Assembly (NCBI GenBank): GCA_003154195.1
Contig: PMCS01000029.1
Span: 208,703 to 272,702 of the forward strand
Source of the DNA: Candidatus Omnitrophota bacterium
Lineage (GTDB): Bacteria > Omnitrophota > Gorgyraeia > Duberdicusellales > 4484-171
DNA length: 64,000 nucleotides
Reading direction: 5' to 3'
Shown: piece by piece, positions 3,251-46,031 of the stretch
Layout: each line of letters starts with the position of its first letter
How positions within the stretch are numbered: the stretch's first letter is position 1
The notes under the pieces: model-generated
Databases searched by the model: none
Told to the model about the DNA's origin: nothing
Seen by the model: the letters and a program-made list of their open reading frames with translations, nothing else
Made by a program: the position numbers and the translations under genes

Positions 3251-3269
3251 AATAAGGAGATGAAAAAAG

Positions 3270-8216: not shown

Positions 8217-8234
8217 GTAATAAAATATTAATGA

Positions 8235-8385
8235 AAACCTAAAGATTTACCACTAAGGCACAAAGTTCACAAAGAAAAAACCAAGATTAAGGTTTTATTT
8301 TTTTGATTTTACCCAAGACGAGATATATTTTTTTCTTTGTGACGCTTAGTGCCCTTAGTGTCTTGGTGGTAAATTTTTATGGTTT
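8235..8385. repeat. Intergenic hairpin element, copy B (same family as 3121-3250)
   Basis: tttaccactaaggcacaaagttcacaaagaaaaaacc paired with ttctttgtgacgcttagtgcccttagtgtcttggtggtaaa. Ends just before the RBS GAGGGAG and the ATG at 8405. Confidence 0.6.
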
Positions 8386-8404
8386 TGTTATTGAGGGAGA
8401 AAAG

Positions 8405-31882: not shown

Positions 31883-32000
31883 AAATACTATGCGAATCAA
31901 ATCACAAATTACAAATACCAAATCCCAAATTTCCACCTTTTGCGGGATTGCGCTGAACCAGCATAATAAAGAGCGGGAAAATCCCAGTATCAAAATACAA

Positions 32001-33038
32001 ATGACCAAAACCAAAACATCTATTGTTTGGAATTTGAAATTTGGAGCTTGGAATTTATTTGGTGCTTGGTGCTTGGTGCTTGGGATTTGTATTTTTTTAC
32101 AATCGCCGGTGTTCGGCGAGGCGGATAAGGCCGATATCGCACGTCATTATCGCCTGGGGCGTATCTATTATGAAAACGGCCTTTACGAAGATGCTCAAAG
32201 AGAGTTTAAGAAGGCCATGAATGTGCCGGATAATAATATGCTTAATGATTCTGAGCAAGCGCAAATTCTACCGGCAAGAGACGTTGTCCCGCCGGCCGCT
32301 TCTCCGGCCCCGGCGCAACAAGTAAAAAATATAATGCCGGGGACGGGGACAGATGGTATAGACCATAAGATAAATAAGGAAACCCCGGCCCCCGCCGTGT
32401 TGGTTTCCCAGCCCGATGCCGTTTCTCCCGCCGGCGATTATATCATCGGGCCGGGGGATACTCTTTCCGTAAGCGTATGGGAAAACAGCGACCTTGATAA
32501 GGAAGTAATTGTCCGGCCCGACGGGAAAATTTCCTTCCCCTTAATCGACGATGCTGTTGCCGCGGGGTTGGCCATTCCTCAGTTGAGGGGAGTCATTACC
32601 GCAAAGCTCAGCGAATTTATTCGTTACCCCCAGGTAGTCGTTTCTTTAAGGGCGATCGGCGGCAATAAAATCATTGTGCTGGGCGAGGTCGGCCATCCCG
32701 GAGTTTTTTCCCTTAGCGAGCAGAAAAGCGTTCTGGAAGCGGTAGCTTTGGCCGGAGGTTTTACCAAAGACGCAGTGCTCGACAGTGTTATCGTCATAAA
32801 GGGCGGTTTAAAAAATCCGCAGGCGATGCGGGTTAATCTTACTAAAGCTTTGATCCGGGCCAATATGAAAGAAAATGTTCTCCTGGTTTCCCAGGATATC
32901 GTTTATGTTCCCAGAAGATTTATCGCCAACCTCAGTTATTTTTTAAACCAGATTCTTGACCCGATCTCCAAAGGTGCTTCTATCTATCAACAATTTCAGA
33001 CCTTGGGGGTTACAACCACCACGACCGTAACCCAATAG
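32001..33038 (+). CDS. Wza/KpsD-like polysaccharide export protein (Poly_export + SLBB domains)
   Basis: GDYIIGPGDTLSVSVWENSDL ... VRPDGKISFPLIDDAVAAGL ... IIVLGEVGHPGVF. ORF-track frame opens at 31890, but that N-terminus translates a simple-sequence inverted repeat. The ATG at 32001 gives a signal-like segment. Confidence 0.7.
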   Translation: MTKTKTSIVWNLKFGAWNLFGAWCLVLGICIFLQSPVFGEADKADIARHYRLGRIYYENGLYEDAQREFKKAMNVPDNNMLNDSEQAQILPARDVVPPAASPAPAQQVKNIMPGTGTDGIDHKINKETPAPAVLVSQPDAVSPAGDYIIGPGDTLSVSVWENSDLDKEVIVRPDGKISFPLIDDAVAAGLAIPQLRGVITAKLSEFIRYPQVVVSLRAIGGNKIIVLGEVGHPGVFSLSEQKSVLEAVALAGGFTKDAVLDSVIVIKGGLKNPQAMRVNLTKALIRANMKENVLLVSQDIVYVPRRFIANLSYFLNQILDPISKGASIYQQFQTLGVTTTTTVTQ

Positions 33039-33067
33039 TAAAGTTGTTTTGTATTTGTTATTATAAA

Positions 33068-33772
33068 ATGACCTTTTCGGTTATCATCCCTACTTACAAT
33101 GAAGAAGATGTAATTGTCGATATTATCGCTGCCGTTCGTAACGAGATATCTCCTCTCGAGGAAATTATTATCGTCGACGACAATTCCACGGATTTAACCA
33201 GGCCGCGCGTCGAGCAATTAGCGCGGGCCGACCGGAAGATTCGTTTAATCCGCCGGGATAACGAAAAAAATCTGGCTACAGCGATTGCCGAAGGGATTCG
33301 TTGCGCCGCCGGCGATTGGGTTATGTGGTTTGACGCCGATTTTTCGGCGCCGCCGGGGACACTGACCGCATTAATAAACTCGGCCTCCGGCGCCGATATT
33401 GTCGTTGCTTCCCGTTATGTCCGCGGCGGCAAAGATGCCCGGGATGATTTTTTGCGTGTTGCCGCCAGCTATATTTTTAATTGGTTCGCCCGTCTGGTCT
33501 TGCGTACTGCAGTGAAAGATTTAACCAGCGGCCAGATAATTGCCCGGCGCAGCATCTTTGACTGCCTGGCAATTAAGGGTTTATACGGCGAATATTGTAT
33601 CCGGTTTCTCTATGAGGCTTCCCGGAAAGGATTTAAAATAAAAGAAACGCCTTACGTGTATTTTTCCCGTAAAAAGGGCAAAAGCAAAACCACGGCAAGC
33701 CCGGGCCAATTCTTAAAATATTGCTTGGTATACGTCTCTGAAGTTTTTAAATTGACGCGGTCAAAATCATGA
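33068..33772 (+). CDS. Family 2 glycosyltransferase (DPM1/ArnC-like polyprenyl-phosphate sugar transferase)
   Basis: FSVIIPTYNEEDVI ... IIVDDNSTD ... DADF. ORF track starts at 33044; the ATG at 33068 is more plausible. Confidence 0.8.
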   Translation: MTFSVIIPTYNEEDVIVDIIAAVRNEISPLEEIIIVDDNSTDLTRPRVEQLARADRKIRLIRRDNEKNLATAIAEGIRCAAGDWVMWFDADFSAPPGTLTALINSASGADIVVASRYVRGGKDARDDFLRVAASYIFNWFARLVLRTAVKDLTSGQIIARRSIFDCLAIKGLYGEYCIRFLYEASRKGFKIKETPYVYFSRKKGKSKTTASPGQFLKYCLVYVSEVFKLTRSKS

Positions 33773-34944
33773 AACATAAAAGGATCATTTTACCGGCGCC
33801 GGAGCCTTATTTAAACCGGCGAAAAAAAATAATCCCCGTAAGCGCGCCCTTATTCGACGGCAACGAACTGGCTTATCTTACCCGGTGCATCAAAAGCGGA
33901 TGGATTTCTTCCCTGGGTAGTTATGTGGAAGAATTTGAAGAGCGTTTCAGCGCTTATTGCGGAGCAGGATGGGGCGTGGCTTGTTCCAGCGGGACGGCTG
34001 CTTTGCATCTGGTGCTGGCGGCCGCCGGTGTCGGCCGGGGCGATGAAGTGATTATGCCGGCATTTACCATGATTTCTACCGCCAACGCCGTCGCTTACCA
34101 GGGCGCTAAACCGGTATTGGTCGATGTCGAGCCGGATACTTTTACTATCCGTCCGGACAAAATAGAAGGAAAGATTACCAAACGCACCAGGGCGATCATC
34201 GCCGTGCATATCTACGGCCATCCCGCCGATATCGATCCCATCAAAAGAATCGCCCGCAAATATAAACTTTTGCTTATTGAAGACGCCGCCGAAGCCCATG
34301 GCGCGCGCTATAAAGGTAAACCGGCCGGCTCTTTAGCCGCCGCCGCCTGTTTTAGTTTTTACGGTAATAAAATTATTACCACCGGCGAAGGCGGAATGGT
34401 CGTTACCGGCAATAAAAAAATATACCGGCGCGCCGCTTATTTGCGCGACCTGGCTTTTTCCAGCGCGCGCCACTTCTGGCATAAAGAATTAGGATTTAAC
34501 TACCGGATGTCCAATTTGCAGGCGGCCGTAGGATTGGCCCAGTTGGAGCGGGTAGATAAACTGGTGGCGATTAAGCGCGATAACGCGCGGCGTTATACTG
34601 CCTTGCTTAAGGACATCGCCGGCATCGGGCTGCCTCCGGAGCGGCCCTGGGCAAAAAATGTATACTGGATGTACGCGGTTACCGTGGAGAAAGAATTCGG
34701 CATATCGAAAGACCGGCTGCGCGCCCGGCTTGCCCAGAACGGCATCGATACGCGTAATTTTTTCATCCCTATAAATTTACAGCCGATTTATGCCGGAATC
34801 TGCCGGGGAAATTTTCCCGTTGCCGAAGAGTTGTGCCGGAAGGGTTTTTATTTACCATCGGGTTTTAATTTAAAAAAAGATGATATCGCGTTTATCGTCA
34901 ACACCATTCGGGAAGCTCGCCTTTGTTGGTGGACTCGCCGGTAA
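33769..34944 (+). CDS. DegT/DnrJ/EryC1/StrS family PLP-dependent sugar aminotransferase (ArnB-like)
   Basis: 391 aa. Fold-type I aminotransferase motifs; FSFYGNKIITTGEGGMVVT contains the PLP lysine context. Confidence 0.85.
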   Translation: MKHKRIILPAPEPYLNRRKKIIPVSAPLFDGNELAYLTRCIKSGWISSLGSYVEEFEERFSAYCGAGWGVACSSGTAALHLVLAAAGVGRGDEVIMPAFTMISTANAVAYQGAKPVLVDVEPDTFTIRPDKIEGKITKRTRAIIAVHIYGHPADIDPIKRIARKYKLLLIEDAAEAHGARYKGKPAGSLAAAACFSFYGNKIITTGEGGMVVTGNKKIYRRAAYLRDLAFSSARHFWHKELGFNYRMSNLQAAVGLAQLERVDKLVAIKRDNARRYTALLKDIAGIGLPPERPWAKNVYWMYAVTVEKEFGISKDRLRARLAQNGIDTRNFFIPINLQPIYAGICRGNFPVAEELCRKGFYLPSGFNLKKDDIAFIVNTIREARLCWWTRR

Positions 34945-35483
34945 TTTAAAAACCCATATTGTACTGATTATAACATGTGCCGTCGGCGCTTTGCTGCGTT
35001 TCTATAAGATCGACGAACGTTGTTATTCCGGCGACGCTATCGCCTGGATACCGGTCGGCGTGCATTTTCTTAGGGATTTCGGCACGCTGTTGGCCGGCGA
35101 GGGTTTTAGCCGCGTACCGTTAAAAATCGGCCCCCTGGGAAATATTCTGTTTATACAATCAACGGGAATGTCAAAGGAAAGAATTTGTCGATAGCTGTGA
35201 CGATATTGCTTCTATCATATGTTTATGAGAAAAAAGCAAATTAAAAATAGTTGGGCTAGTTAGGTCGGTTGAGCCAGTTGTAGTGTTGGAATCTTTCAAC
35301 AGCCTCGACAGTCCCAACGGTTGAACGGGCTAAACAGGTCCAACAGGCTAAACAATCAAATGCTTCATAACCGTATCTACATTTTTTTCAGGCTTTTAAT
35401 ATCCGGAAAAATAAAATATATTTACGCGAGTTTCCGCCGCCGATTTATTTTTTATTTCCGTAAAAATTACTTCAAAAAACAAA

Positions 35484-35677
35484 TGATGGAACGAAAGGGG
35501 CATTGTCCGGGTTCAGGTCATTGCTGTGCGAAAACAATGCCCCGGTGTAAATATTTTTCCGGCGGTAAGTGCCTTGCTTATAATGAACAACCATTTTTTT
35601 GTAAAATTTTTCCCATCGACAAAAAAGATGTTATACTTAGCGATGTAAAAGGGATATGCGGGTATTGTTGGAAATAA
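35484..35677 (+). CDS. Small Cys-rich protein, YkgJ/UPF0153-like (putative Zn/Fe-binding CxxCxxCC-type)
   Basis: 64 aa from the ATG at 35484. MMERKGHCPGSGHCCAKTMPRCKYFSGGKCLAYNEQPFFCKIF...CGYCW, 8 Cys. The ORF-track 118-aa version extends upstream into a repeat region. Confidence 0.4.
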
Positions 35678-35690
35678 GCTTGTAAACAAT

Positions 35691-37154
35691 ATGAATATTA
35701 CTTTAATCAATCCTCCTTTTGAAGTGCAGGATTCAGTCGGCTCATCACGAAGCCTGAGCCTGGTTTTAAATGTAATCCCGCCGCTCGGTTTAGGCTATCT
35801 GGCGGCAGCGCTGGAAACTTCCGGTTTTTGCGTGCAAATCATCGACTTTACACTCAAGCATAACCGTAAAACTCTTTTGCGGCAAATCGCCAGCCAAAAC
35901 CCGGCCGTAATCGGCATTACCGCTTCTACGCCGATTTTTGCTTCGGCCTGCGATTTGACTAAGGTTTTGCGCAACCTTTGCCCAAAAGCATTGTTGGTAT
36001 TAGGCGGAGCGCACGTGACGGCGATGCCTGAGCCAGCCATGAAAAGCGGCTATTTTGACATCGGTGTTATCGCTGAAGGCGAAGAAACTTTTCTGGCGTT
36101 GGTTAAAAATTTAGAAGAAAAGGGAGGCGGGGGATTGGAGACTATTCCGGGCATTATTATTAAAAAAGATGATCGATGGATATTAACGCCCAAGAGAGAG
36201 TATGCTAAAAATCTTGATACCTTGCCTTTTCCCAGCCGGCATTTGCTACCGCCCCTGTCTTGTTATCAGCCCACCCCGGCTTCTTACCGTCGGCTTCCCT
36301 TAGGTATTATTATTACCAGCCGTGGCTGTCCCCATCAATGCACTTTCTGCGACCGGGCGGTCTTCGGCAATGTTTATCGGGCGCGGAGCAGCCAAAATGT
36401 TTTGGCTGAGGTCAAAGAGGTAGTAAATAAATACGGGGCGCGGGAAATCAGGTTTTTTGATGATTGTTTTACGTTAGATAAAAGACGCGTTTATGATATT
36501 TGCGCCGGCTTGCGTAAATCGAATATTAAGATACCCTGGACCTGCCTTACTACCGTTACCAGCGTTGATAAGGATTTGCTGAAAGAGATGGCTGCGGCCG
36601 GTTGCTGGCAGGTTTTATTCGGGTTAGAGTCGGGCGATGAACGGATGCTTGCCCGGCTATGTAAGGGCCCTTGTTTAGAAGATAATGTTAACGCAGTTCG
36701 TTGGGCAAAGCAAGCCGGTTTAAGCGTGCGCGCCGATTTTATCGTAGGCACTCCCGGCGAGACTAAAGAGAGTTTACAAAAAACTTTGGCGTTTACCTTG
36801 AACAACAGGCTTGACTATGCACATTTTAATAAATTTGTCCCTTACCCGGGGACAGAATTATACAAAAATTTAACCGGTGAAGGCTATCGGTTCGATTTTA
36901 ATAAACCCTGCAGTATTACCGACCATGAAAGTTTTGCCTATATCCCGCCGACTTTAGAAAAAGAATATTACGAAAATTTCCTCAATTACGCGCATCAAAA
37001 GTTTTATCTAAGGCCAGGGTATATGCTAAAGCGATTGCTGTCGATAAGGGGATGGGATGAATTTATCGGCCAGTTAAAAGGTTTTCTGTCCATAGTTTTA
37101 TTACGACGAAGTCGGAGAAAGGGTGGGATATTAAAAAATGAAATTAATCAATAA
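35691..37154 (+). CDS. B12-binding domain radical SAM protein (class B, methyltransferase-like)
   Basis: 487 aa. N-terminal cobalamin-binding Rossmann region (LGLGYLAAALETSGFCVQIID ... VIGITAS) followed by the radical SAM motif CPHQCTFC. Confidence 0.85.
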   Translation: MNITLINPPFEVQDSVGSSRSLSLVLNVIPPLGLGYLAAALETSGFCVQIIDFTLKHNRKTLLRQIASQNPAVIGITASTPIFASACDLTKVLRNLCPKALLVLGGAHVTAMPEPAMKSGYFDIGVIAEGEETFLALVKNLEEKGGGGLETIPGIIIKKDDRWILTPKREYAKNLDTLPFPSRHLLPPLSCYQPTPASYRRLPLGIIITSRGCPHQCTFCDRAVFGNVYRARSSQNVLAEVKEVVNKYGAREIRFFDDCFTLDKRRVYDICAGLRKSNIKIPWTCLTTVTSVDKDLLKEMAAAGCWQVLFGLESGDERMLARLCKGPCLEDNVNAVRWAKQAGLSVRADFIVGTPGETKESLQKTLAFTLNNRLDYAHFNKFVPYPGTELYKNLTGEGYRFDFNKPCSITDHESFAYIPPTLEKEYYENFLNYAHQKFYLRPGYMLKRLLSIRGWDEFIGQLKGFLSIVLLRRSRRKGGILKNEINQ

Positions 37155-37323
37155 GATAAAAGGCGTATTTCTTATTATTCTGGGAGCAGCCTGGATTGCT
37201 TTCGTTTATAATTTTTACACGTTTAGGCTTGAGCCGCCGTCATTGATTTCTAAGGTGGTTCTGGGTTTTATTCTGGGAGCGATAATGATGATAAACGGCA
37301 TGAGGATTTACCGAAGAAAATGA
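37138..37323 (+). CDS. Small 2-TM membrane protein
   Basis: 61 aa, hydrophobic. Overlaps both neighbouring genes by a few nt, suggesting coupling. Could be spurious. Confidence 0.3.
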   Translation: MKLINKIKGVFLIILGAAWIAFVYNFYTFRLEPPSLISKVVLGFILGAIMMINGMRIYRRK

Positions 37324-39206
37324 CGCAAAGCAAAATACCTAAAAGCATAATCATTATAACCGGATTGACCGTTTTGTTTTTGGCGATGAGGTTGCTGGTT
37401 TTATTTTCTTATCTAAACCGGCTCTATGAACCAGAGGAGCTTTATCGCGGCACAATCACCAGAGAAATCATCAAAGGCCCGTTGATGTCGCCGTGGGAAT
37501 ATTTAGATTATAAAGTAGATTATTTCCCCGGCGGCACATTGGTTGTAGGTATATTGGCGGTGCCGTTTTTTCTTTTATTCGGCCATACCTATATAAGCCT
37601 TAAATTAGTCGGCCTTGTTTTTGCCCTGGGGACTTTTTTGTTGTGGTATTTATTTATGGATAGATTTTTCAATCGTCGGACAGCGGTTATAACCGCTGCC
37701 GTGTTTCTTTTATGCATGCCGTTTTATACGATGACTTCTTTTATTACCTGGGGCTCCCATCCCGAGACAAATTTTTTTACTATCTTGAGTATATTTATTT
37801 TTTGCAATATTTTTTTAAACGCGCGGGTAAAATCCGGCGACAATATTTTTTATACCGGTTATAAAAATTTTTTCTTGTTGGGATTAATTTCCGGATTCGG
37901 CCTCTGGTTTGTGGAGACATCTCTTATCCCATTGTTATTTTTATTAATTTTTTGGTTCATTTTCGATCGGCGAGTTTTTTTAAGAAAAGTATTTTTTATT
38001 TTTTGTTTGGGGTTTATTACGGGTTTTTCACCGGCCATTTATTATGAACTGGTTTATAAAGGTAATGCCTTGGCCATAAGGGGCCAGTCTTTATTGTCGA
38101 ATATACTAGCCTGCAATATAAACGGCGCTTTGCCCAAGGCCCTGTTGCTGTTTTCGCATGATCTGCCCAATTCATTTCTTTTCGGCAATATTTTTAATTT
38201 AAACGGGAAAATATTTTCCTATCTTTATTATTTTATATTTTTGTCGGCTTTCGCTTATCTTTTTTGGATTAACCGTAAAATTATTTTTTTATCAGGAAAG
38301 GCTGCAATTTATCCGATAACCCTGAAGGAAGTCAAGGTCGCCCCCGCAGCGGTTCCTTCCGAAGTGATTATTTTAGCCTACCCGGTATTTTTTTTAAGTT
38401 GTTTCATCCTGAGTGATTACTGGATATTGTCCCCGCCCTGGGAAGATCCGTTACTTTGGCCGCATTATATTGGCTACCGCTATCTGACCCCGGCTATTCC
38501 GTTTTTTCTGGCTATTTTAGGTATCTTCGCCGGGAAGATGAAAAATAAAATTTTGTTCAGTCTTACCCTGCTTTTTGTATTAGGCCTGGGGTTGCTGGGA
38601 AATTTAAATATTATTTCGATGAAAAACTTCGGTAAATTTTTTTCCTACAAAGGATATTCTTATAATATAATCGGCGATAAAATCGGTTTTAAAATTAGCC
38701 GGGGATTAGGTAAATATATCGCGCCGTTCAATAAACTGCCGGAAAATGAAAAAATACAATTTTACGAAGGTCTGGGCACGGGAATTGCTTTGCGGATGGA
38801 GAAGTCTAAGCCGGAAACAGTTATTCGGTTTTTTGAAAAAGAAATAAATGCCCCCTATCAACCGTTTTTATACCGTGGTTGGGGGTCGCTTTTTTTTGCT
38901 AATTATCCTGATCGGCTTCGGCGGGCGTTGGCCGCAGCGAAGATCATTGAACCGCGATACCGGCCCTTTTTTTACGAAGGCTTCGGCCGAAAAGTAGAGT
39001 TTTCTAAAGACGTCTCTAAGCTACCGAATTATATCCGGGCAATAGAATTACCTTATCGTCAATTTTATTATAAAGGCTTCGGCTTTGCCGTTGGCCTTGT
39101 ATTTGGATATGATAAGCGTAAGGAAGCTGAGTTGATTGAGATCGCCGGTTCAGAATATAAAAAATTTGTCAAAGAGGGAATTGTGGAAGGCGAAACGGCC
39201 AGATGA
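37320..39206 (+). CDS. GT-C fold membrane glycosyltransferase (ArnT/PMT, GT39/83-like) with C-terminal repeat domain
   Basis: 628 aa. About 11 N-terminal TMs. C-terminal soluble domain with internal repeats YEGLG / YRGWG / YEGFG / YKGFG. No WWDYG oligosaccharyltransferase motif. Confidence 0.55.
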   Translation: MTQSKIPKSIIIITGLTVLFLAMRLLVLFSYLNRLYEPEELYRGTITREIIKGPLMSPWEYLDYKVDYFPGGTLVVGILAVPFFLLFGHTYISLKLVGLVFALGTFLLWYLFMDRFFNRRTAVITAAVFLLCMPFYTMTSFITWGSHPETNFFTILSIFIFCNIFLNARVKSGDNIFYTGYKNFFLLGLISGFGLWFVETSLIPLLFLLIFWFIFDRRVFLRKVFFIFCLGFITGFSPAIYYELVYKGNALAIRGQSLLSNILACNINGALPKALLLFSHDLPNSFLFGNIFNLNGKIFSYLYYFIFLSAFAYLFWINRKIIFLSGKAAIYPITLKEVKVAPAAVPSEVIILAYPVFFLSCFILSDYWILSPPWEDPLLWPHYIGYRYLTPAIPFFLAILGIFAGKMKNKILFSLTLLFVLGLGLLGNLNIISMKNFGKFFSYKGYSYNIIGDKIGFKISRGLGKYIAPFNKLPENEKIQFYEGLGTGIALRMEKSKPETVIRFFEKEINAPYQPFLYRGWGSLFFANYPDRLRRALAAAKIIEPRYRPFFYEGFGRKVEFSKDVSKLPNYIRAIELPYRQFYYKGFGFAVGLVFGYDKRKEAELIEIAGSEYKKFVKEGIVEGETAR

Positions 39207-39274
39207 CTTGATTTATCCTCGATTGAGATGCTTAAATCGATTTCCCAATACGCGGCGAATTTATAGTTAAATGT

Positions 39275-40954
39275 ATGTCTAAAGTTATTCTTTGTATCCC
39301 CCCTGATTACGATTATAATTTTCCCCCCTTAGGCACGCCGGTCTTACTGGGATTTCTTAAAAGCAAAGGAATTAAAGCCGGGCAGGTCGATTTAAATCTG
39401 GCTTACCGCGATTTTCTTTTATCGAAAATTAAAGGCAAGGGATTGACCGCCGGCGACAAGAAATTACTTTTGCGGCGGTTGGTAAATGATTTTTTTACCC
39501 AGCGGCTTAAAGGGCATTATTATTCCCAATTGTTACCGCGTAGGCGCGGTAAGGCCTTGGCAGATCTTCCTTACGGTAATAGCTCCAACAGCTCATTTTA
39601 TTTCACCGAGCGCCTTTTATCTTCGAAGTATCTTTTTCGTTATCTGGCGGATAAGGAGAACAATACTTTTTATCAATTCTATCTCGCCGAAAGAATTATC
39701 ACTCGTCTTAAAAAAGATAAGATTGATTTGATCGGTATTTCGGTGATCTCGCCTTCGCAGGCTATTCCGGCGCTTACTTTAGGATTATTGATAAAACAAC
39801 TTCTCCCGGATGTACATGTTAACCTCGGCGGGCAATGGGTGACATTATTCCGGGATGAACTTAAAAAACGTGATGATTTTTTTGCCTGCTTCGACAGTCT
39901 GATCGTTTTTGAGGGTGAAACGCCGCTCTATGCGTTGGTCGATGCTTGGCGTGGGAGTAAAAAGGCTTTGCCGCCCTTGGCTAACGTAATTACCCAAAAA
40001 AATAAAAAACCGTTGCTTAACCCGCGAGGCGAAGATATAAACGCTTTGGCTACGCCGGATTTTTCCGGGTTACCTTTAAACCGTTATGATTCGAGTAAGG
40101 TCACGCCGCACCTTACCTATGAGACTTCACGCGGTTGTTATTGGTCTAAGTGCGCTTATTGTGTCGATTTGCCTTTACCGAAACCGTCTTATCGGGCTAA
40201 AAGCGCCGATCGTGTTGCCGCCGAAGTCAAAGAGTTGATCAAGCGATTCGGCGTAACTGATTTGATGATGGGTGATCCCGGCATGGCGCCGCGCCAGATG
40301 CTCGAAATATCGCGCGCCTTAATCAAAAATAGCATAAAAATCAAATGGTGGACCATGGCTCGCCTTGACTCCGGGTTTAACCAGAAAATTTTTGCAACAG
40401 CTAAACAAGCCGGCCTTTTCCAGGTTAATTTCGGTTTCGAATCGGCGTGTGACCGGGTGTGCGATTTTCTCCATAAAGGCAACCGGCAGGCTATTTCTGC
40501 CCGAGTGATCCAGGATTGCGCGCAATCGGGTGTTCGGGTAGATTTGCAGACCATGATCGGTATGCCGGGGGAAACGCATGGTGACGCGATGGAAACCGTC
40601 GGTTTTTTGATCGAAAATAAAAAAGATATCGCCGCCGTGACTTTTAACATTTTTTATCTCACCCCGGGTAATTATGTCTATCACAGTCCTAGGAATTACG
40701 GGGTAAGTTTTAATAAAAATAAAGTTTTACCGTTTCAATTTTTTATTCCGTTTAAAAATAAGCATGGTATGACCGCAGACCAGGCCGGGTTCATTATGAA
40801 TGTGTATCATCAGCTTTTAGCCGGGGCTAACGCCGGAACTTCAGTCTCCAAAGACCGGCGCAAACGATTCGGAAAGGTAAGTTTTTCGCTATGCGGCGAA
40901 TCCATCGGGATCAAATGGGAAAAATACGCGTCAGGAAATATTGTGATTAAATGA
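39275..40954 (+). CDS. B12-binding domain radical SAM protein (second paralog)
   Basis: 559 aa. N-terminal B12-binding-like region and radical SAM motif CYWSKCAYC. Confidence 0.85.
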   Translation: MSKVILCIPPDYDYNFPPLGTPVLLGFLKSKGIKAGQVDLNLAYRDFLLSKIKGKGLTAGDKKLLLRRLVNDFFTQRLKGHYYSQLLPRRRGKALADLPYGNSSNSSFYFTERLLSSKYLFRYLADKENNTFYQFYLAERIITRLKKDKIDLIGISVISPSQAIPALTLGLLIKQLLPDVHVNLGGQWVTLFRDELKKRDDFFACFDSLIVFEGETPLYALVDAWRGSKKALPPLANVITQKNKKPLLNPRGEDINALATPDFSGLPLNRYDSSKVTPHLTYETSRGCYWSKCAYCVDLPLPKPSYRAKSADRVAAEVKELIKRFGVTDLMMGDPGMAPRQMLEISRALIKNSIKIKWWTMARLDSGFNQKIFATAKQAGLFQVNFGFESACDRVCDFLHKGNRQAISARVIQDCAQSGVRVDLQTMIGMPGETHGDAMETVGFLIENKKDIAAVTFNIFYLTPGNYVYHSPRNYGVSFNKNKVLPFQFFIPFKNKHGMTADQAGFIMNVYHQLLAGANAGTSVSKDRRKRFGKVSFSLCGESIGIKWEKYASGNIVIK

Positions 40955-43011
40955 GCGGACAAAATATTACGTTTTTTGAGGTAAAGGGTTTTTGCATGTG
41001 GCCATTTTTACGCGCCGGCCAAAAAATATTAATTAAAAAAATAGCCGGTTCGGAATTTAATCCCGGGGATTTGATGCTTTACCATGCCGACGGCCAGTTA
41101 CTTTGCCATCGTCTGCTGCGTAAAGAGAAAAAAAACGGTAGTTGGGTATTTTATTGCCGTCCGGATACCTCCGGCCCCGGCGGGGAACCGGTTAGTGAAA
41201 ATATGGTGGAAGGCAAAGTCGCAGCGGTGGTCAGCGCGAACAAAATAGTCGGCTTGGAAACGCCTTGGGCACGCTTCCGGGCGGTTATGATTCTATTTTT
41301 TTTGTCGCCGATTTTGGCTCATTTTAACCGACTATATAAAAAAATAAAAATTCTAAAAATATTAAAAAATAACTATTTGCTTATATTTATCCTATTGTGC
41401 GCGGCAATGGTAAGAATTTGGGGGATAGGCTTCGGATTGCCGAATACAAATTGCCGGCCGGATGAGGAACAAATCGTGGATATCGTAAAATCTCCATTGC
41501 ATAATTTTAATCCCGAAGCGTTTAATTACCCGTCCCTGTACAAATATATTAATTTTTGTTTTTATGGATTATATTTTATTTTTGGTTTATTTACCGGCAA
41601 ATATAGATTGCTGTCGGATTTTGTTAGAGAGGTTGTCGTTACAAATTATAAAGACCTTTATTTAATCAATAGGTTTCTCTCCGCGTCTTTTGGCGTGGCG
41701 ACGGTATTTATGTGCTATAAGGCAGCCGAAAGATTTTTTGATAGAAAAACTGCAATAATTTCCGCATTTTTTTTGAGTTTCGCATATCTTCACGTCAGAG
41801 ACTCTCACTTTGGAACTGTTGATGTCCCGGCAGTTTTTTTTGTTATGTGCTCCATGCTTTTTATCATAAAATCTCACCAGGATAACTTAATAAAAAACTA
41901 TATTTTATCCGGGGTATTTGCCGGGCTAGCCGCTTCTACTAAATATATCGGCATCTTATTAATTGCGCCGATGTTAATTGTTAATAGTTTAAGCCTATCT
42001 CTGACTAAAGGCGAAGATAAGGCGTTGGCGCATCCGCTTTCTCCTGCTAAAAAAATGTTGTTTTTTATAATCTTTTTTATCGCGGCCTTTTTGTTAGGGA
42101 CTCCATATGCGGTATTAGATTTTAATCATTTTATAAGCGATTACTTGGGGACAATAAAACGTTTCATCCATGGGGAAGACATCATTCTTGGTAAAGGATG
42201 GTGGTATCATTTAAGGTTTTCTTTACTGTTTGGTATGGGCTTTAGTTTATTTTTCGCATCATTAGCGGGAATCTTAGTACTTATAAAAATTAATTTTAAA
42301 AAAGCGTTTATACTATGTTCCTTTCCATTGGTATATTATGCCATAATCGGCCGGGGATATGGAGTGTTCTTGAGATATGCTATTCCGCTTGTTCCCTATC
42401 TTTGCATTACTGCCGCCGTATCCACTGTATATCTTATTAATGGTCTTGGAAAATATTTAAACCCAATCTTAAATAAAGCGGTAATGCTGATATTTCCATT
42501 TTTAATTATCTTGCCTTCGGTTTATAATATTTTACGTTTTGATATTTTGCTGTCAAAAAAGGATAATCGCTTAATCGCGGCAGAATGGATCAACAAGAAT
42601 CTTCCCGAAAGAAGTTCTATCGCAATTTTTGACTCCGGCTACGGGATCCAGCTTGCCCCGGCATCCCTGGGGTTATCGGATAAAGATATGAGCCGGTCGG
42701 ATAAAATAATAATGGATTACTTAAGAAACAATAAGATCAAAGGTTTCAACCTAGACGGTTGGAATGGCCAATCAAATATGTCAAAATATATCGTTTTAGA
42801 AGAATCGCCCCTGAAGAGATTTTGTTTAATTGATCCGGAACAGAAAGAAATTATACTAAAATCTTATTATCTTTTGGCAGAATTCAAGTCGATTAACATT
42901 GACAATAAATCTAACTGGTTTGATCAGGATGACTGTTTCTATATGCCGTTCGTGGGCTTTAAAGAAATCCAAAGACCGGGTCCAAATATCTATATCTATA
43001 AAAAGAAATGA
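40951..43011 (+). CDS. Fusion protein: N-terminal S24/S26 (LexA/signal-peptidase-like) domain with Cys in the nucleophile position, followed by a GT-C (ArnT/PMT-like) membrane glycosyltransferase
   Basis: 686 aa. N-terminus VKGFCMWPFLRAGQKILIKK ... GDLMLYHADGQLLCHRLLRK follows the G-[SC]-M-x-P ... GD ... K/R layout of S24/S26 peptidases. Then more than 10 TMs. Start overlaps the stop of the B12-rSAM gene. Confidence 0.55.
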   Translation: MSGQNITFFEVKGFCMWPFLRAGQKILIKKIAGSEFNPGDLMLYHADGQLLCHRLLRKEKKNGSWVFYCRPDTSGPGGEPVSENMVEGKVAAVVSANKIVGLETPWARFRAVMILFFLSPILAHFNRLYKKIKILKILKNNYLLIFILLCAAMVRIWGIGFGLPNTNCRPDEEQIVDIVKSPLHNFNPEAFNYPSLYKYINFCFYGLYFIFGLFTGKYRLLSDFVREVVVTNYKDLYLINRFLSASFGVATVFMCYKAAERFFDRKTAIISAFFLSFAYLHVRDSHFGTVDVPAVFFVMCSMLFIIKSHQDNLIKNYILSGVFAGLAASTKYIGILLIAPMLIVNSLSLSLTKGEDKALAHPLSPAKKMLFFIIFFIAAFLLGTPYAVLDFNHFISDYLGTIKRFIHGEDIILGKGWWYHLRFSLLFGMGFSLFFASLAGILVLIKINFKKAFILCSFPLVYYAIIGRGYGVFLRYAIPLVPYLCITAAVSTVYLINGLGKYLNPILNKAVMLIFPFLIILPSVYNILRFDILLSKKDNRLIAAEWINKNLPERSSIAIFDSGYGIQLAPASLGLSDKDMSRSDKIIMDYLRNNKIKGFNLDGWNGQSNMSKYIVLEESPLKRFCLIDPEQKEIILKSYYLLAEFKSINIDNKSNWFDQDDCFYMPFVGFKEIQRPGPNIYIYKKK

Positions 43012-44447
43012 TGGAAGTTTTTTTAAAAGAAGATCACGACGAAGCGCTGAAGATTTGGCGTAAACTAAGCGTTAAAAACCTGGATTTGGTTCATGTAGAC
43101 GCACATATTGATTTCGTAATGCATTACGCGCGCGATCCCCAGGAAATACTCGCCCAGGCGGTCAATTTAAAACAACTGAAACAAAATCTCGAGTACACAT
43201 TATCTTTCTTAGAGTATGAAAAAGATTTGGATAAACAAACCGATATCGGTAATTATATTTACCCGGCGATGCGCGAAGGCCTGGTTAAAAATTTCTGGTG
43301 GGTTATTCCCGGCGATGCCGGCTCTTTTGAGAAAAATTTTAAATTGATAAAAAGGATATTTACCCGGTCGTTTACCGGACAAAAAGTAAAATTAATACAC
43401 AAAGCAAAAGGGTTAGCTTTTATTAAGGCGTGGGGTAGGGAATTTTGGGCCTGCACTTTGGAGACCTTGCCGGTTTTTTCTCAACCTGTGCTTTTGGATA
43501 TTGATACGGATTTTTTAGTGGTCGGTGATTTATCGCGCGCCGATAATACTTGTGATATCGGCAAGCGCAGGCCCTGGATAATACCGGAGGTGTTAAGAGA
43601 AAAGTTAGCCGCAAAAATAAAAAGCCCCGTGATAACTACGATTGTTTACTCGACCAACGGCGGGTTTACGCCCATGGTTTATCGCTGTCTGGGCGATGAA
43701 TTAGCCTATAGTTTTAATCAGCAAAAATTTGCCAAAAGTTTTTGCCGTCGTCGGCAAGCCGCACAAAACTTTAAAAAATTTTTAGCTTCCGGTAAAAAAA
43801 GCGATTATTGGCGGGCGGTTGGCTTTGATCCGGCCTATCGCGACGATGACAATAATTACGGGCCGTTGTATTTGGCCAAAAACCGCTTTAACCCGGCGCA
43901 AAAAGAAGTCAAAAAAATATTTTGTGTTGATCCCAAAAATCCGGCGGCTTTAAAGAATATGGGTGTAATCTTTTTGCGAAAGAAAAAATACTTGAAAGCA
44001 TTAAACTGTTTTCATTCGCCGTTAAAACAAAAATCAATTAAAAAAGGGTTACGCGCGCAAATTATTTTCGGGTTAGCTCAGGCAAATTTTGGATTAAAAC
44101 GGTTGGATGAGGCGCAAAAATTGTTTGCTTTACATCGACGCCTTATGCCGTTGGCGGGCGCAAGCTATTATTGGGCGGCAGATATTTACCGGGTAAAAAA
44201 AGAGTATGCTTTTGCCGCCGCAAGCTACCGCCACGCTTTGCGTCTAGGCGTCGGCGGGTTGGATGTTTTAGCCAAGCTTTTAAGGGTTTCTTTTAAGCTT
44301 GGCAAGACACAAAGGGATGATATAATTGCTTATGTAAAAATGCGAACCGGTAGTTTTAAGATACCGGCTAAAGGCAGCAAGCGGGTTAAGCGGAAAATAA
44401 CGATTCTTAAGCGGTTAATGAGGGAGGCAGGGGTTTATGCAAGATAA
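43008..44447 (+). CDS. Hypothetical protein: N-terminal arginase/deacetylase-fold-like (UPF0489-like) domain with C-terminal TPR repeats
   Basis: 479 aa. LVHVDAHIDF and LLDIDTDFLVVGD resemble the DAHxD / SFDxDxxDP metal-binding motifs of ureohydrolases. C-terminal TPR-like helices. Overlaps both neighbours by 4 and 11 nt. Confidence 0.4.
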   Translation: MMEVFLKEDHDEALKIWRKLSVKNLDLVHVDAHIDFVMHYARDPQEILAQAVNLKQLKQNLEYTLSFLEYEKDLDKQTDIGNYIYPAMREGLVKNFWWVIPGDAGSFEKNFKLIKRIFTRSFTGQKVKLIHKAKGLAFIKAWGREFWACTLETLPVFSQPVLLDIDTDFLVVGDLSRADNTCDIGKRRPWIIPEVLREKLAAKIKSPVITTIVYSTNGGFTPMVYRCLGDELAYSFNQQKFAKSFCRRRQAAQNFKKFLASGKKSDYWRAVGFDPAYRDDDNNYGPLYLAKNRFNPAQKEVKKIFCVDPKNPAALKNMGVIFLRKKKYLKALNCFHSPLKQKSIKKGLRAQIIFGLAQANFGLKRLDEAQKLFALHRRLMPLAGASYYWAADIYRVKKEYAFAAASYRHALRLGVGGLDVLAKLLRVSFKLGKTQRDDIIAYVKMRTGSFKIPAKGSKRVKRKITILKRLMREAGVYAR

Positions 44448-44718
44448 AGAAATTCTGAAAAAGAATAAAAATATCGTCAGCCGCGCCATCGGCGCGGAAA
44501 CCGTGCTCTTACCGATCTGCAAAGATACTAAAGAGATGAATTGTATTTATACGCTGAATAAACCGGCGGCGCGTGTTTGGGAGCTGATTGACGGTAAACG
44601 CGGTTTAAGCCGGATTAAAAAAGATATTCTCAACGAGTTTGACGTAAACGCCGGCGAACTTGATAAGCTGATGGCGGCATTGCTGAAAGACTTAAAAGAT
44701 ATAAAAGCGGTTAATTAA
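44437..44718 (+). CDS. PqqD-family protein (stand-alone RiPP recognition element, RRE)
   Basis: 93 aa. IVSRAIGAETVLLPI ... IYTLNKPAARVWELIDGKRGLSRIKKDILNEFDV matches the PqqD-like wHTH pattern. Confidence 0.7.
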   Translation: MQDKEILKKNKNIVSRAIGAETVLLPICKDTKEMNCIYTLNKPAARVWELIDGKRGLSRIKKDILNEFDVNAGELDKLMAALLKDLKDIKAVN

Positions 44719-44734: not shown

Positions 44735-44944
44735 ATGAACAAACCCAAATTTAACCCGATCGTTACCCGTGTCAAGCTTAACCCCGAACAGGCAGTTTTG
44801 GCGTGCAGTTGTTATACAACAAACAGGAAATGCCCTGCCAACGGCACCGGCGGCCGAGTTGCCAACCGGAGCATTTGCCAGACCAATGTCTGTATTAATA
44901 ACTACTGCCTAAATGGAAACTCTGCAAACAGGTCATCAACTTAG
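44735..44944 (+). CDS. Candidate RiPP precursor peptide: 23-aa leader-like N-terminus plus 46-aa Cys/Asn/Ser/Thr-rich core with six Cys
   Basis: MNKPKFNPIVTRVKLNPEQAVLA | CSCYTTNRKCPANGTGGRVANRSICQTNVCINNYCLNGNSANRSST. RBS gggagg 6 nt upstream. Located between the RRE gene and the three SPASM radical SAM genes. Confidence 0.55.
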   Translation: MNKPKFNPIVTRVKLNPEQAVLACSCYTTNRKCPANGTGGRVANRSICQTNVCINNYCLNGNSANRSST

Positions 44945-44949
44945 GGGAG

Positions 44950-46029
44950 ATGCTTGCTCACGGATTAGCCTATCTTGAAGAGAAATTTTCCGATCAGCGG
45001 CATAAGCCTATAAATGGCCAGATCGATTTGACCTATCGCTGTGACTATAACTGTCGGCATTGCTATTGTAAAGGCAGTGAAAATATCGGCCGGGAATTGA
45101 CCACGGCCCAGGTCAAAAAAGTTTTAGATGAAATATATGCCGCCGGTTGTTTCTGGCTTACCTTAACCGGCGGCGACCCCTTGATCCGGCCGGATTTTAA
45201 AGAAATTTATGCTTATGCAAAACAAAAGGGGTTTGTCGTTACGATTTTAACCAATGGTTATCGCCTTAATCGCAAGTTGGTTGATTATTTCACCAAATAC
45301 CCGCCGCTTTCAATCGATATAACCCTAAACAGTCTGGATAAACTTATCTATGAAAAAATAATTGGATTTCCCGGTAAAGCCTTATCTCGTGTGTTGGATA
45401 ATATTCAATATGCATCGCGTAAGGGTATAGCTTTAATTATTAAAGCCAATGCCCTCAAAGAGAATAAAAACCAGATCGGCAGGATTAAGCGCTGGGCGCA
45501 TAATTTGCCGGGCAAATCTAAAGAAAACCTGTTTAATTTTCGTTACGACAATGTTATCTATCCGCGCTTAGATGGCGATCTTGAGCCTTGCCGCCACAGG
45601 CTTGATCAAAAAGAGCTGGGTGTTGTTTACGGGCTTGATTCGGATATTAAAAAAGACCGGCGAAATTATTTAAAAAGGGGATTTCCTTCCGGTAAAATAC
45701 CGCATCGTCCTTTGTATTTTTGTAATACTTTCCAAACGCAATTTTTTATTGATCCGTTTGGACGGTTAAAATTTTGCCCGCATACCGACAAATTCAGTGT
45801 GGATTTACGCAAGGTTTCTTTTGTCCGGGGTTTTTATGAGGAGTTCCCTAAGCTTACAACGGTGAGATTTAAAACTAATTCGCCTTGCCGCACTTGCCGT
45901 ATTCGTAAAATGTGCCGTTCTTGCCCGGCCGCTGCCCTTGCGGAGACCGGTGATGAAGAAAAGCCGGTTGAATATTTTTGCCATATGGCGCATCAATCGG
46001 CAAAAGATACTTTGCGCCTAAAAAAATAA
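44950..46029 (+). CDS. Radical SAM / SPASM-domain peptide-modifying enzyme (maturase 1)
   Basis: 359 aa. N-terminal CDYNCRHCYC. C-terminal SPASM auxiliary-cluster motif CRTCRIRKMCRSCPAAA plus the upstream Cys pair FCNTF ... KFCP. Confidence 0.85.
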   Translation: MLAHGLAYLEEKFSDQRHKPINGQIDLTYRCDYNCRHCYCKGSENIGRELTTAQVKKVLDEIYAAGCFWLTLTGGDPLIRPDFKEIYAYAKQKGFVVTILTNGYRLNRKLVDYFTKYPPLSIDITLNSLDKLIYEKIIGFPGKALSRVLDNIQYASRKGIALIIKANALKENKNQIGRIKRWAHNLPGKSKENLFNFRYDNVIYPRLDGDLEPCRHRLDQKELGVVYGLDSDIKKDRRNYLKRGFPSGKIPHRPLYFCNTFQTQFFIDPFGRLKFCPHTDKFSVDLRKVSFVRGFYEEFPKLTTVRFKTNSPCRTCRIRKMCRSCPAAALAETGDEEKPVEYFCHMAHQSAKDTLRLKK

Positions 46030-46031
46030 AG

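Follow-up and report, generated by a model that had tools for sequence, protein, structure and literature searches.

Signal peptidases of the S26B type, which comprise Sec11/SEC11A, SipW from Bacillus and the archaeal signal peptidase I (SPase I; TIGR02228), are the closest described relatives of a small domain encoded in the DNA analysed here, a stretch of 64,000 nt (hereafter, the window) from contig PMCS01000029.1 of assembly GCA_003154195.1 (positions 208,703-272,702, forward strand). The domain forms the N-terminus of a 686-aa protein encoded at 40951-43011, shares with the S26B enzymes the GxSMxP, HR and GD motifs in register and, as in the SipW-type enzymes, is followed by a hydrophobic helix. 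Unlike them, it holds no N-terminal anchor, scores below the curated cutoffs and, in the clade of the window, carries a Cys as its putative nucleophile. Moreover, it is encoded in a peptide-maturation cassette rather than being part of general secretion, and its family is found fused to NTP_transf_5 proteins, an ABC exporter, a methyltransferase, GNAT domains and, in the window, a glycosyltransferase of the GT-C fold (GT-C). What appears to be new is therefore a predicted anchorless Cys/His/Asp relative of the signal peptidases, located in a peptide-maturation cassette and fused to a GT-C in this organism. This peptidase family and its cassette are the main object of interest of the region 35691-43011. 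The explanation favoured here, with somewhat better than even confidence, is that this region is the seam of two independently conserved modules within one long co-directional locus of the polysaccharide-export type, and that the peptidase of the second module acts as a cytoplasmic leader peptidase.

In gene content, the cassette resembles the peptidase-containing ABC transporters (PCATs), with their C39 domain, and the lasso-peptide systems, with the protease B2 and the PqqD-like B1, since a small protease is encoded together with a PqqD-type leader binder and an ABC exporter. As in the PCATs, the protease is found at the N-terminus of the exporter in some genomes (L041; labels from L001, L004 and so on to L043 designate loci on the contigs of relatives, and P0150, P0207 and the like designate protein representatives). 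As with B2, it is fused in other genomes to an NTP_transf_5 nucleotidyltransferase. A review of lasso peptides reports that an HPr-kinase homologue phosphorylates the C-terminal Ser, after which a nucleotidyltransferase adds a hexose, and that in some cases this nucleotidyltransferase and the B2 leader protease form a single protein (PMC8498205). Unlike the papain-like C39 and the transglutaminase-like B2, the protease described here would belong to clan SF, its activity being predicted, and the cassette holds no lasso cyclase. On the other hand, the SynChlorMet system (SCM; ScmC, ScmD/PqqD, ScmE, ScmF) also combines in one operon a PqqD, several radical S-adenosylmethionine (SAM) enzymes of the SPASM type and a ScmC-like protein, but the S26-like peptidase, a protein with UPF0489 and tetratricopeptide repeat (TPR) domains, a B12-binding radical SAM enzyme and the precursor family are extras of the present cassette. 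The scores against the SCM models (26.2 bits versus a cutoff of 125 for ScmC, 17.3 versus 100 for ScmD, ~72 versus 400 for ScmE, and ~68 versus 400 for ScmF) indicate a cassette that is SCM-like, not an SCM member. A literature survey on SCM, on S26 leader peptidases in ribosomally made peptides modified after translation (RiPPs), and on RiPPs and exopolysaccharides of Elusimicrobia returned nothing on this cassette, its precursor family or an S26-type leader peptidase, nor any paper on the SCM cassette itself.

The S26B-like domain comprises residues 1-133 of the 686-aa protein (40951-41349, + strand) and displays in succession the stretches VKGFCMWPFL, GDLMLY, LCHRLL, YCRPD and GKV, followed by the hydrophobic helix (residues 105-132), with Cys15, His53 and Asp72 as putative catalytic residues. 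A preliminary description of the region, made from its sequence, had pointed out the motif GFCMWP, which is indeed present in this N-terminal part, and had proposed a homology to S24/S26 peptidases that profile searches and the fold now bear out. Homology was assigned with Pfam and NCBIfam under their curated cutoffs, profile and PDB searches, hhalign, AlphaFold, Foldseek and tblastn. The model TIGR02228, which describes the archaeal-type signal peptidase I, matches the domain alone with 31.2 bits (E=1.7e-7) and the whole protein with 27.1 bits, against a cutoff of 51.85, and is matched by 18/18 members of the clade (best E=1.3e-10). Similarly, Pfam Peptidase_S24 matches 16/18 clade members, and the window protein with 17.8 bits against a threshold of 23.3. 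The best PDB matches of the clade profile are Bacillus SPase I and human SEC11A/C (E ~0.2), and in the alignment the Ser nucleophile of SEC11A falls on Cys15, its His on His53 and its GDN on RPD. A single-sequence PDB search with the domain returned nothing useful, and Pfam and NCBIfam hold no model specific to this S26-like family. The predicted structure shows the β-barrel fold of S24/S26 peptidases, with SipA from Streptococcus pyogenes, a non-catalytic signal-peptidase homologue, as the best structural match.

Conservation of the catalytic positions across the wider family argues that the domain is a divergent homologue of the S26B-type (Ser/His/Asp) peptidases, with catalysis as a prediction. 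An exhaustive profile search retrieved 6466 representatives at E<=1e-3, 548 of them at E<=1e-10. Of the best 150 representatives, 132 have Ser and 5 have Cys at position 15, the His-Arg pair at positions 53-54 is present in all 150, and Asp72 is kept in 143; the replacements at position 15 are Cys, apart from a single Asn. The exchange of Ser for Cys at the nucleophile position, noted in the preliminary description, is thus recovered against the background of a mostly Ser-bearing family. In the close clade, Cys15 is found in 16/17 homologues, and Ser (AGT) and Cys (TGT/TGC) alternate among 74%-identical proteins, the pattern that would be expected of a working nucleophile and, if so, a natural experiment on nucleophile interchange in clan SF. 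A Cys nucleophile would be chemically plausible, since the S90C variant of the Escherichia coli leader peptidase keeps its activity. To our knowledge, this would be the first natural member of clan SF with a Cys nucleophile. As for the formal classification, the domain departs from S24 in having His, not Lys, at the base position, and in the absence of both a Ser-Lys dyad and a DNA-binding domain. It holds the general-base His (H-R box) and the conserved Asp (G-D box) of S26B, and departs from this group in curated score, nucleophile and N-terminal anchor.

The genetic neighbourhood shows that the S24/S26-like domain is a core peptidase gene of the cassette, to judge by gene order and sequence comparison. 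The conserved order is [rSAM2] - S26-like - UPF0489/TPR - PqqD - small ORF (open reading frame) - rSAM - rSAM - ScmC-like - rSAM - ABC exporter - GT4 / NTP_transf_5, where rSAM designates radical SAM enzymes. A scan of species-representative genomes for this cassette returned two loci. In the window, the peptidase domain is followed by the UPF0489-TPR protein (43008-44447; the N-terminal UPF0489 domain is peptide-arginase-like), whose place downstream of the S26-like gene is conserved, and by the PqqD-family peptide-binding protein, a RiPP recognition element (44437-44718; Pfam PqqD 36.8 bits), which is 77-87% identical in close cassette loci and 50-59% in distant ones. Next comes a precursor peptide of 69 aa (44735-44944), composed of a leader (...KPKFNPIVTRVKLNPEQAVLACSCY) and a variable core rich in N/S/T/R/C that ends in Ser-Thr. 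The 16 full-length homologues, located in 13 loci (four of them as tandem copies in L026), share the leader consensus M.(K/R)KPKF.P.(V/I)T(R/K)(V/I)KLNPEQAVL.C.C(Y/W), followed by a hypervariable core whose last residue is Ser or Thr in 16/16. Their positions include L001 13384-13584, L006 12127-12330, L026 14887-17154, L041 117-368 and L042 15076-15276, and the family matches no NCBIfam or Pfam model. All these genes lie on the + strand.

The role of leader peptidase is proposed for the S26-like protein by analogy, because its association with a nucleotidyltransferase parallels that of lasso B2, and its fusion to the exporter parallels the PCATs. Fusions to NTP_transf_5 are found in five proteins (P0150, P0151, P0190, P0259, and P0275), and in L042 and L043 the fusion gene lies directly upstream of PqqD - rSAMs - ScmC - precursor. 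The fusion to the N-terminus of the ABC exporter is found in P0207 (L041), where the order is precursor - ScmC - rSAM - rSAM - [S26::ABC], adjoining AAA_22, HD_5 and PMT_2 genes. Other partners of the domain are a SAM methyltransferase and GNAT domains. According to the proposed mechanism, the peptidase would use the triad Cys15/His53/Asp72 (Ser/His/Asp in most relatives) on the cytoplasmic face, where the C-terminal helix would hold the domain at the membrane, and would cut the conserved leader off the modified precursor at or before ABC export, in parallel to the C39 domain of the PCATs and to the lasso B2 protease. In combination with the ScmC-like P-loop protein and NTP_transf_5, the constant C-terminal Ser/Thr of the precursors is reminiscent of the C-terminal phospho-glycosylation of lasso peptides.

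A cytoplasmic location of the domain, with the C-terminal helix as its membrane tether, is considered fairly likely. It is suggested by the lack of an N-terminal anchor (a hydrophobic segment at the N-terminus is seen in none of the 133 stand-alone representatives, and the TIGR02228 match starts at profile position 36, past the anchor), by the basic character of the domain (net +5, as counted from the sequence), and by at least two NTP_transf_5 fusions in which no hydrophobic segment separates the domains. The methyltransferase and GNAT fusion partners point in the same direction, since both need cytoplasmic cofactors. Several observations weigh against this assignment and against the explanation as a whole. 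The homology to S26 lies below every curated cutoff, and leader cleavage, the cleavage site and the membrane side are things that we infer. The C-terminal helix with its Lys-rich tail would also fit a domain outside and a tail inside, as in the ancestral SipW-like arrangement, and an outside-facing domain would join seamlessly to the inward N-terminus of a GT-C or of an ABC exporter. Two of the NTP_transf_5 fusions carry a hydrophobic segment before the peptidase domain, and the residue preceding the conserved Cys-x-Cys of the precursors varies (A, G, L, I, S), which is not the classic specificity of signal peptidases. In addition, a GT-C adjoins the cassette in 5 of ~11 lineages (the window, the L001 group, L016, L041, and L043), and other glycosyltransferases, GT4, GT9 and GT2, also recur around it (GT9 in L010, GT2 and PMT_2 in L043, PMT_2 in L041). 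GT-C genes appear to be common in these loci, and the recurrence of several glycosyltransferase families leaves room for a possible looser functional link between the cassette and glycosylation.

The fusion that distinguishes the window joins the peptidase domain in frame to GT-C2 (41350-43011, + strand), a glycosyltransferase of the PMT_2/PMT type (GT39/GT83-like). In every relative the two halves are separate genes: all 17 close homologues of the peptidase are stand-alone proteins of 119-166 aa, and the GT-C2 homologues, of ~550 aa, cover only the C-terminal 80% of the 686-aa protein. In the closest relative, L001 (identical in sequence to L008; an Elusimicrobia metagenome-assembled genome (MAG), PMCA01000008), a 135-aa peptidase ends in ...YNKIKGR-TAA, and a TTG located 6 nt further on starts the GT-C. 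Compared with L001, the window lacks exactly 15 nt in frame, comprising the peptidase stop and the spacer, and the TTG is changed to ATT, so that the loss of the stop codon welds both genes into one ORF. Gene calls of the 686-aa product are also found in three further public assemblies of the same organism (an ENA, a Logan and an NCBI MAG assembly), and a contig-truncated copy of 624 aa that spans the junction is 100% identical, which together rule out an assembly artefact. Upstream of the junction, along 35320-41206, the window sequence recurs unchanged in the ENA, JGI and Logan assemblies, and with a single-base difference in the NCBI MAG. Both halves keep all family-invariant residues. The fusion is therefore real but lineage-specific, found in this organism only among the 17 close homologues and the loci of the contig scan. 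It is an accident of gene order restricted to this lineage, which may nonetheless be tolerated functionally or even be of use, and its main effect would be to tether the peptidase to the membrane.

GT-C2 itself is recognized by Pfam above threshold (PMT_2 59.6 bits with a cutoff of 26.1 and PMT 48.5 with a cutoff of 22.7, residues 236-383 of the 686-aa protein). Its first external loop holds the acidic motif RPDEE, and D38, E39, H148, R150 and D158 are invariant in the family alignment. Its relation to GT66 is below threshold (archaeo_STT3 E=4e-4, 18.9 bits versus 450); the only PDB match of its profile is yeast STT3 (E=1e-3), over short stretches. A WWDYG-type motif was not found in GT-C2, where a GWWYH lies in a loop between membrane spans, and a single-sequence PDB search returned nothing useful. 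Comparison of the cassettes indicates that GT-C2 is an accessory, generic gene rather than part of their core, because it is missing from most cassette loci and its nearest relatives lie outside cassettes. Only in the window and the L001 group does it separate the S26-like gene from the cassette gene that follows; it appears in L016 as a GT-C2-like fragment at the far end of the cassette, and is not found in the cassettes of L006, L012, L013, L009, L010 and L017. The closest relatives (68-73% identity) belong to L004/L005 and L039, the latter on a 1.87-Mb contig that also holds the cassette, ~60 kb away, and a homologue with 52% identity is part of an O-antigen-type locus. GT-C2 would then be a general envelope glycosyltransferase recruited into the operon.

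This changes the meaning of the gene order that the preliminary description had emphasized, namely two tandem pairs of a B12-binding radical SAM enzyme and a GT-C, the first with a small membrane ORF between them. The layout itself stands. Five ORFs of the + strand occupy 35691-37154 (487 aa), 37138-37323 (61 aa), 37320-39206 (628 aa), 39275-40954 (559 aa) and 40951-43011 (686 aa), with 4-nt overlaps at 37320, 40951 and 43008, that at 40951 being the ATGA where the stop of rSAM2 meets the start of the fused protein, as described earlier. Its assignment of two GT-C membrane proteins is likewise sustained, by Pfam for GT-C2 and by model matches and hhalign for GT-C1, and so are the cobalamin-binding-like N-terminal regions of both radical SAM enzymes (B12-binding, 73.5 bits in rSAM1 and a sub-cutoff 28.8 in rSAM2). 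What does not survive is the repetition of a unit. The supposed second pair is, on the comparison of loci, rSAM2 plus the peptidase gene, with GT-C2 as a recruited accessory, because the conserved neighbour of rSAM2 is the S26-like gene. Its homologues (61-72% identity) lie directly upstream of that gene in the L001 group, L006/L013, L012, L016 and L017, and in L010 rSAM2 is located 2 kb upstream, with a GT9 and a 324-aa Cys-rich gene between them (7846-9971). rSAM2 is not present in L009 and in the distant loci L018-L026. A tandem duplication was also considered, and is ruled out by the identity of only 29% between both radical SAM enzymes and by the profile-level relation between GT-C1 and GT-C2. 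The apparent repeat is a module junction, and GT-C2 is missing from most cassette loci.

Both radical SAM enzymes align along the class-B (B12-binding) family models, always far below the equivalog cutoffs, and are class-B-like by this comparison. rSAM2 (39275-40954, + strand), an accessory tailoring enzyme of the cassette according to its synteny, matches Radical_SAM above the cutoff (50.3 bits) and B12-binding just below it (28.8 bits, E=1e-6, versus 32.1). Its best NCBIfam match is the RiPP C-methyltransferase TIGR03975, below cutoff, and it would tailor the peptide, probably as a C-methyltransferase. Its cluster motif at residues ~288-296, CYWSKCAYC, has the spacing Cx4Cx2C instead of the canonical Cx3Cx2C, and the homologues from L010 and L016 show the same spacing.

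The module upstream of the seam (module A, 31890-39206) has the features of a lipid-carrier glycan pathway, and the one downstream (module B, 39275 to ~53904) those of a RiPP-like peptide-maturation cassette. Each is conserved on its own. L032, L033 and L034 hold the glycan block without PqqD or peptide cassette, and module B occurs without GT-C2 or the first pair in L006/L013, L012, L009, L010 and L017, as well as in the distant loci L019, L021, L022 and L026. In L032-L034 the order is (HD_5 - coiled-coil -) TPR/Poly_export - GT2 - DegT - PMT_2 (~510 aa) - Cys-rich protein of ~105 aa - rSAM1, continued by [GDSL/TPR] - membrane ORF of 52-64 aa - GT-C1 homologue (45-55%) - more GT-C paralogues. 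The window carries the same block, except that the PMT_2 gene after DegT has decayed. The first pair is thus a unit of the glycan block, because the same block occurs in three lineages without peptide genes, and rSAM1 and GT-C1 would act on a glycan or a lipid-linked sugar, not on the peptide. The adjacency of B12-binding radical SAM and GT-C genes, whose conservation had been put forward as a check, is accordingly kept for the first pair, within a glycan pathway, in L032, L033 and L034, and not for the second. In the window both modules are concatenated, while elsewhere a shared header leads into one or the other: in L006, AAA_22 - HD_5 - coiled-coil - TPR/Poly_export leads directly into the peptide cassette, and in L034 a shorter header, HD_5 - unannotated 551-aa ORF - TPR/Poly_export, leads directly into the glycan block. 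Homologues of the Poly_export protein lie upstream of the glycan block (L032-L034) as well as of the peptide cassette (L006, L012, L013).

Among described systems, module A is closest to the Arn pathway (ArnB, ArnC, ArnT) and to the families GT39/GT83, with a sugar aminotransferase, a small GT2 and GT-Cs in one block; the GT-C1 model matches ArnT, and GT-C2, across the seam, matches PMT_2 and PMT. Unlike in Arn, the matches are sub-equivalog, and module A adds a class-B radical SAM enzyme, a Cys-rich protein, a two-helix membrane peptide and a C-terminal helical-repeat domain on GT-C1. The GT2 (33044-33772), which resembles polyprenyl-phosphate sugar synthases (Pfam Glycos_transf_2), has PgfS, AglJ, ArnC and PpgS as best NCBIfam matches, all sub-cutoff, and is 49-50% identical to the syntenic gene of L033/L034. 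The aminotransferase of the DegT/LegC/ArnB type (33769-34944; Pfam DegT_DnrJ_EryC1, 408 bits) scores 362 bits with the LegC family of NCBIfam against a cutoff of 420, and is syntenic in L033 and L034 (57-69% identity). The ArnC-like GT2 and ArnB-like aminotransferase proposed earlier are therefore both present, although the likeness is broad only and lies below the curated cutoffs. The context of both genes is consistent with the supply of a polyprenyl-phosphate-linked sugar donor for the GT-Cs. Both lie on the + strand, as do the other genes of the block.

rSAM1 (35691-37154) is a class-B radical SAM enzyme of the HpnJ/BchE type, with B12-binding and Radical_SAM matches above threshold (73.5 and 98.2 bits) and the cluster motif CPHQCTFC. 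Its best family matches, HpnJ and BchE, are far under the equivalog cutoffs, and its homologues are syntenic in L032-L034 (56-67% identity). It is followed by o61 (37138-37323), a membrane protein of 61 aa with two hydrophobic helices that overlaps both neighbours, is 46-53% identical to proteins whose genes immediately precede those of the GT-C1 homologues in L032 and L033, and has a 60-aa gene in the same place in L034. The 628-aa protein GT-C1 (37320-39206) is a GT-C glycosyltransferase, as judged from its AlphaFold model, because the model matches known members of the fold and its profile aligns with that of GT-C2. The Pfam PMT_2 match is sub-threshold (19.4 bits, E=1e-3), so that, of the two GT-C genes for which a profile search against GT39, GT83 and GT66 had been suggested at the outset, only GT-C2 is GT39/GT83-like above threshold. 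The model (pLDDT 88) retrieves AglB, ArnT, STT3, ALG9/12 and Pmt4 with Foldseek (probability 1.0, TM-score ~0.38), and hhalign aligns both GT-C profiles with 95.6% probability, placing EPEEL of GT-C1 on RPDEE of GT-C2. These acidic residues of the first external loop are invariant or nearly so in both families, and the fold and acidic loop of a GT-C are found in GT-C1 by model and in GT-C2 by profile alignment. PDB searches with the GT-C1 sequence and with its profile returned nothing useful. There are 54 GT-C1 homologues, and the three contexts read (L032, L033, and L034) are all glycan loci. The C-terminal portion of GT-C1 (residues ~445-628) is an all-helical repeat with four conserved F/Y-x-G-x-G motifs (FYEGLGTG, LYRGWGS, FYEGFGR, and YYKGFGF) spaced ~32-36 aa apart.

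Other explanations have to be weighed against that of two modules with a cytoplasmic leader peptidase. In the preliminary description, both radical SAM/GT-C pairs were thought to methylate and glycosylate a common acceptor, either the peptide or a glycoconjugate, with the participation of the fused peptidase-like domain. The co-directional arrangement with overlaps or short gaps, the absence of a terminator in 39207-39274, the conservation of the first pair with its small membrane ORF in three lineages and the recurrence of B12-binding radical SAM and GT-C genes around the cassette, for instance in L043, would all suit it. However, each module exists without the other (A without peptide genes, B without the first pair or GT-C2), the constant partner of rSAM2 is the peptidase gene, the radical SAM enzymes are 29% identical and the GT-Cs are relatives at the profile level only, and the nearest relatives of GT-C2 lie outside cassettes, all of which make a common acceptor quite unlikely. 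A different arrangement would have a SipW/Sec11-like peptidase facing outward and working with GT-C2 on the exported peptide, so that leader removal takes place outside and the N/S/T-rich core receives sugars, in the manner of an oligosaccharyltransferase, from a lipid-linked donor. The catalytic domain of the homologous SipW and archaeal signal peptidases does lie outside the membrane, the helix and Lys-rich linker before the first membrane span of the GT-C fit an out-to-in span, and GT-C2 has yeast STT3 as its only PDB profile match and in two lineages is inserted precisely after the peptidase gene and before the cassette gene that comes next. Besides, each core of the Cys clade is rich in N/S/T/R and contains 2-4 N-x-S/T sites, and across all precursor cores there are 24 such sites versus 16.7 in shuffles (P ~0.02). 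This enrichment is marginal and composition-driven, though, with none in the distant clade, and sequon-rich cores also occur without an adjacent GT-C (L006, L012, and L010). The missing N-terminal signal or anchor in 133 stand-alone members, a net charge of +5 that disfavours N-tail translocation, the NTP_transf_5 fusions without hydrophobic segment, the methyltransferase and GNAT fusions that point to the cytoplasm and the lack of an identified WWDYG-type motif also speak against an outward domain, which is regarded as unlikely. Similarly doubtful is the broader proposal that the cassette peptide is a component of a glycoconjugate, either with its core glycosylated after export by a GT-C such as GT-C2 or as a primer or anchor for the polysaccharide of the locus, the fusion being a cut-and-glycosylate enzyme; if true, no earlier case is known to us in which a ribosomal natural-product peptide is glycosylated outside the cytoplasm by a GT-C.

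The remaining alternatives concern the nature of the domain and of the fusion. A peptide-binding or regulatory pseudo-peptidase similar to SipA, or a self-cleaving switch similar to LexA, would agree with the non-catalytic SipA as best structural match, with the loss of the canonical Ser in the clade of the window and with sequence matches that are all sub-cutoff. Nevertheless, the positions aligned with the Ser, His and Asp of Sec11 are near-invariant over thousands of relatives, the nucleophile is exchanged for Cys (a single Asn aside) and toggles with Ser in close relatives, and the Ser-Lys dyad of S24 is absent, with His at the base position, so a domain that is not a protease seems very unlikely. 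Finally, the fusion could stem from assembly or sequencing errors or belong to a pseudogene in decay, since it is shared by none of the 17 close homologues and the loci of the contig scan, a neighbouring GT-C has decayed to a remnant of ~50 aa, and rSAM2 has a premature stop in one public MAG. Given that the ORF is called in three other assemblies and its junction is covered by an identical copy, that exactly 15 nt are missing with the frame kept, and that the family-invariant residues are retained in both halves, this origin is extremely improbable.

If the members of the S26-like family are indeed leader peptidases, they would represent a class for which no report was found among ribosomal natural products, recruited from the signal-peptidase fold. 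The family is anchorless, built into a conserved cassette, and repeatedly fused to the exporter or to a nucleotidyltransferase. In most lineages seen (MAGs of the little-studied phyla Elusimicrobia and Omnitrophota), the cassette lies inside or beside loci of the polysaccharide-export type, which hints at a link between the modified peptide and surface sugars. For genome scanning, the region calls for caution, since two look-alike adjacent gene pairs turned out to be the junction of unrelated modules.

The rest of the cassette lies downstream of the precursor gene, on the + strand unless indicated. The UPF0489-TPR protein that precedes the PqqD gene was considered as a peptide arginase and rejected (pept_arginase 31 bits versus 350, E=1.5e-7; OspR E=0.09); the paper on peptide arginases deals with other precursor types and no such peptidase (PMC12703449). 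Three radical SAM maturases are encoded at 44950-46029 (a; PqqE/SPASM-type, with Pfam Radical_SAM and Fer4_12, and NCBIfam matches), 45978-46895 (b) and 47871-48908 (c), all of them supported by domain searches and synteny. The ScmC-like P-loop protein (46832-47890) matches TIGR04249 ScmC below cutoff (E=4e-6); its homologues carry the ScmC match PF27840, and a single-sequence PDB search with it returned nothing useful. It is followed by the ABC exporter, a half-transporter (48895-50547; Pfam ABC_membrane and ABC_tran), and by a GT4 glycosyltransferase (50548-52116; Pfam and synteny), which adjoins the ABC gene in all six close lineages of the cassette with contigs long enough to include it, with 50-83% identity in L001, L006, L010, L012 and L016. 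The sole minus-strand gene in the run, at 52095-52988, encodes a protein of 297 aa that matches Radical_SAM only in part (residues 16-84) and is found in the same place in L006, L012 and L010 (71-80% identity). The NTP_transf_5 protein, of nucleotidyltransferase fold, closes the cassette (53047-53904; Pfam PF14907, 121.5 bits).

Some variation has been observed around the S26-like gene. The NCBI MAG (GCA_003154645.1, PMEA01000122) has an A instead of C at window position 39750 (L038 position 4431), where three other assemblies agree with the window, and its rSAM2 is called as two ORFs (158 and 371 aa) owing to a premature stop, the result of either a variant in the population or an error in the consensus. 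In L016, an ORF with a weak sub-threshold match to IS200-type transposases (Y1_Tnp) lies at 3232-3903, between the peptidase and the next cassette gene. The GT9 and Cys-rich genes of L010 are a further case, the surroundings of the S26-like gene being a site of insertions.

In module A, the block begins with the Wza-like TPR and Poly_export protein (31890-33038, + strand; Pfam Poly_export, SLBB). After the aminotransferase gene, a third GT-C (PMT_2) gene is reduced to a remnant of ~50 aa (35021-35173, + strand, inside the ORF 34880-35194), which tblastn aligns with the PMT_2 proteins of L033/L034 at residues ~207-264 only (43-46% identity). In L033 and L034 its counterpart, flanked by DegT and the small Cys-rich gene, is intact (~510 aa), so the third GT-C represents gene decay within an otherwise intact block. 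The Cys-rich small protein o118 (35321-35677, + strand; …GHCPGSGHCCAKTMPRCKYFSGGKCLAY…FFCKIFP…GICGYCW) matches no family, is 48-53% identical to proteins of 105-107 aa that L033 and L034 encode directly upstream of their rSAM1 homologues, probably starts at an internal codon, and may be a metal- or cluster-binding partner.

Upstream of both modules, the header consists of two AAA_22 paralogues (27083-27898 and 28764-29492), an HD_5 protein (HD-GYP-like, 29610-30932) and a coiled-coil protein (30938-31882). Whole or in part, it also precedes the cassette in L006, L009 and L041, and the glycan block in L033 and L034, which suggests a shared regulatory or export front end. The scan for promoters and terminators found nothing that separates module A from module B, with promoter-like matches at background level and no terminator in the 68-nt gap between GT-C1 and rSAM2 (39207-39274). 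As a whole, the portion from 27 to 64 kb of the window resembles a single surface-polysaccharide locus. Towards its end, downstream of genes for Wzz/tyrosine-kinase, GT4, GT2-methyltransferase and Wzy_C proteins, a further GT-C (60988-62718; PMT_2, 35.9 bits) is followed by a TylF-type O-methyltransferase (62721-63392).

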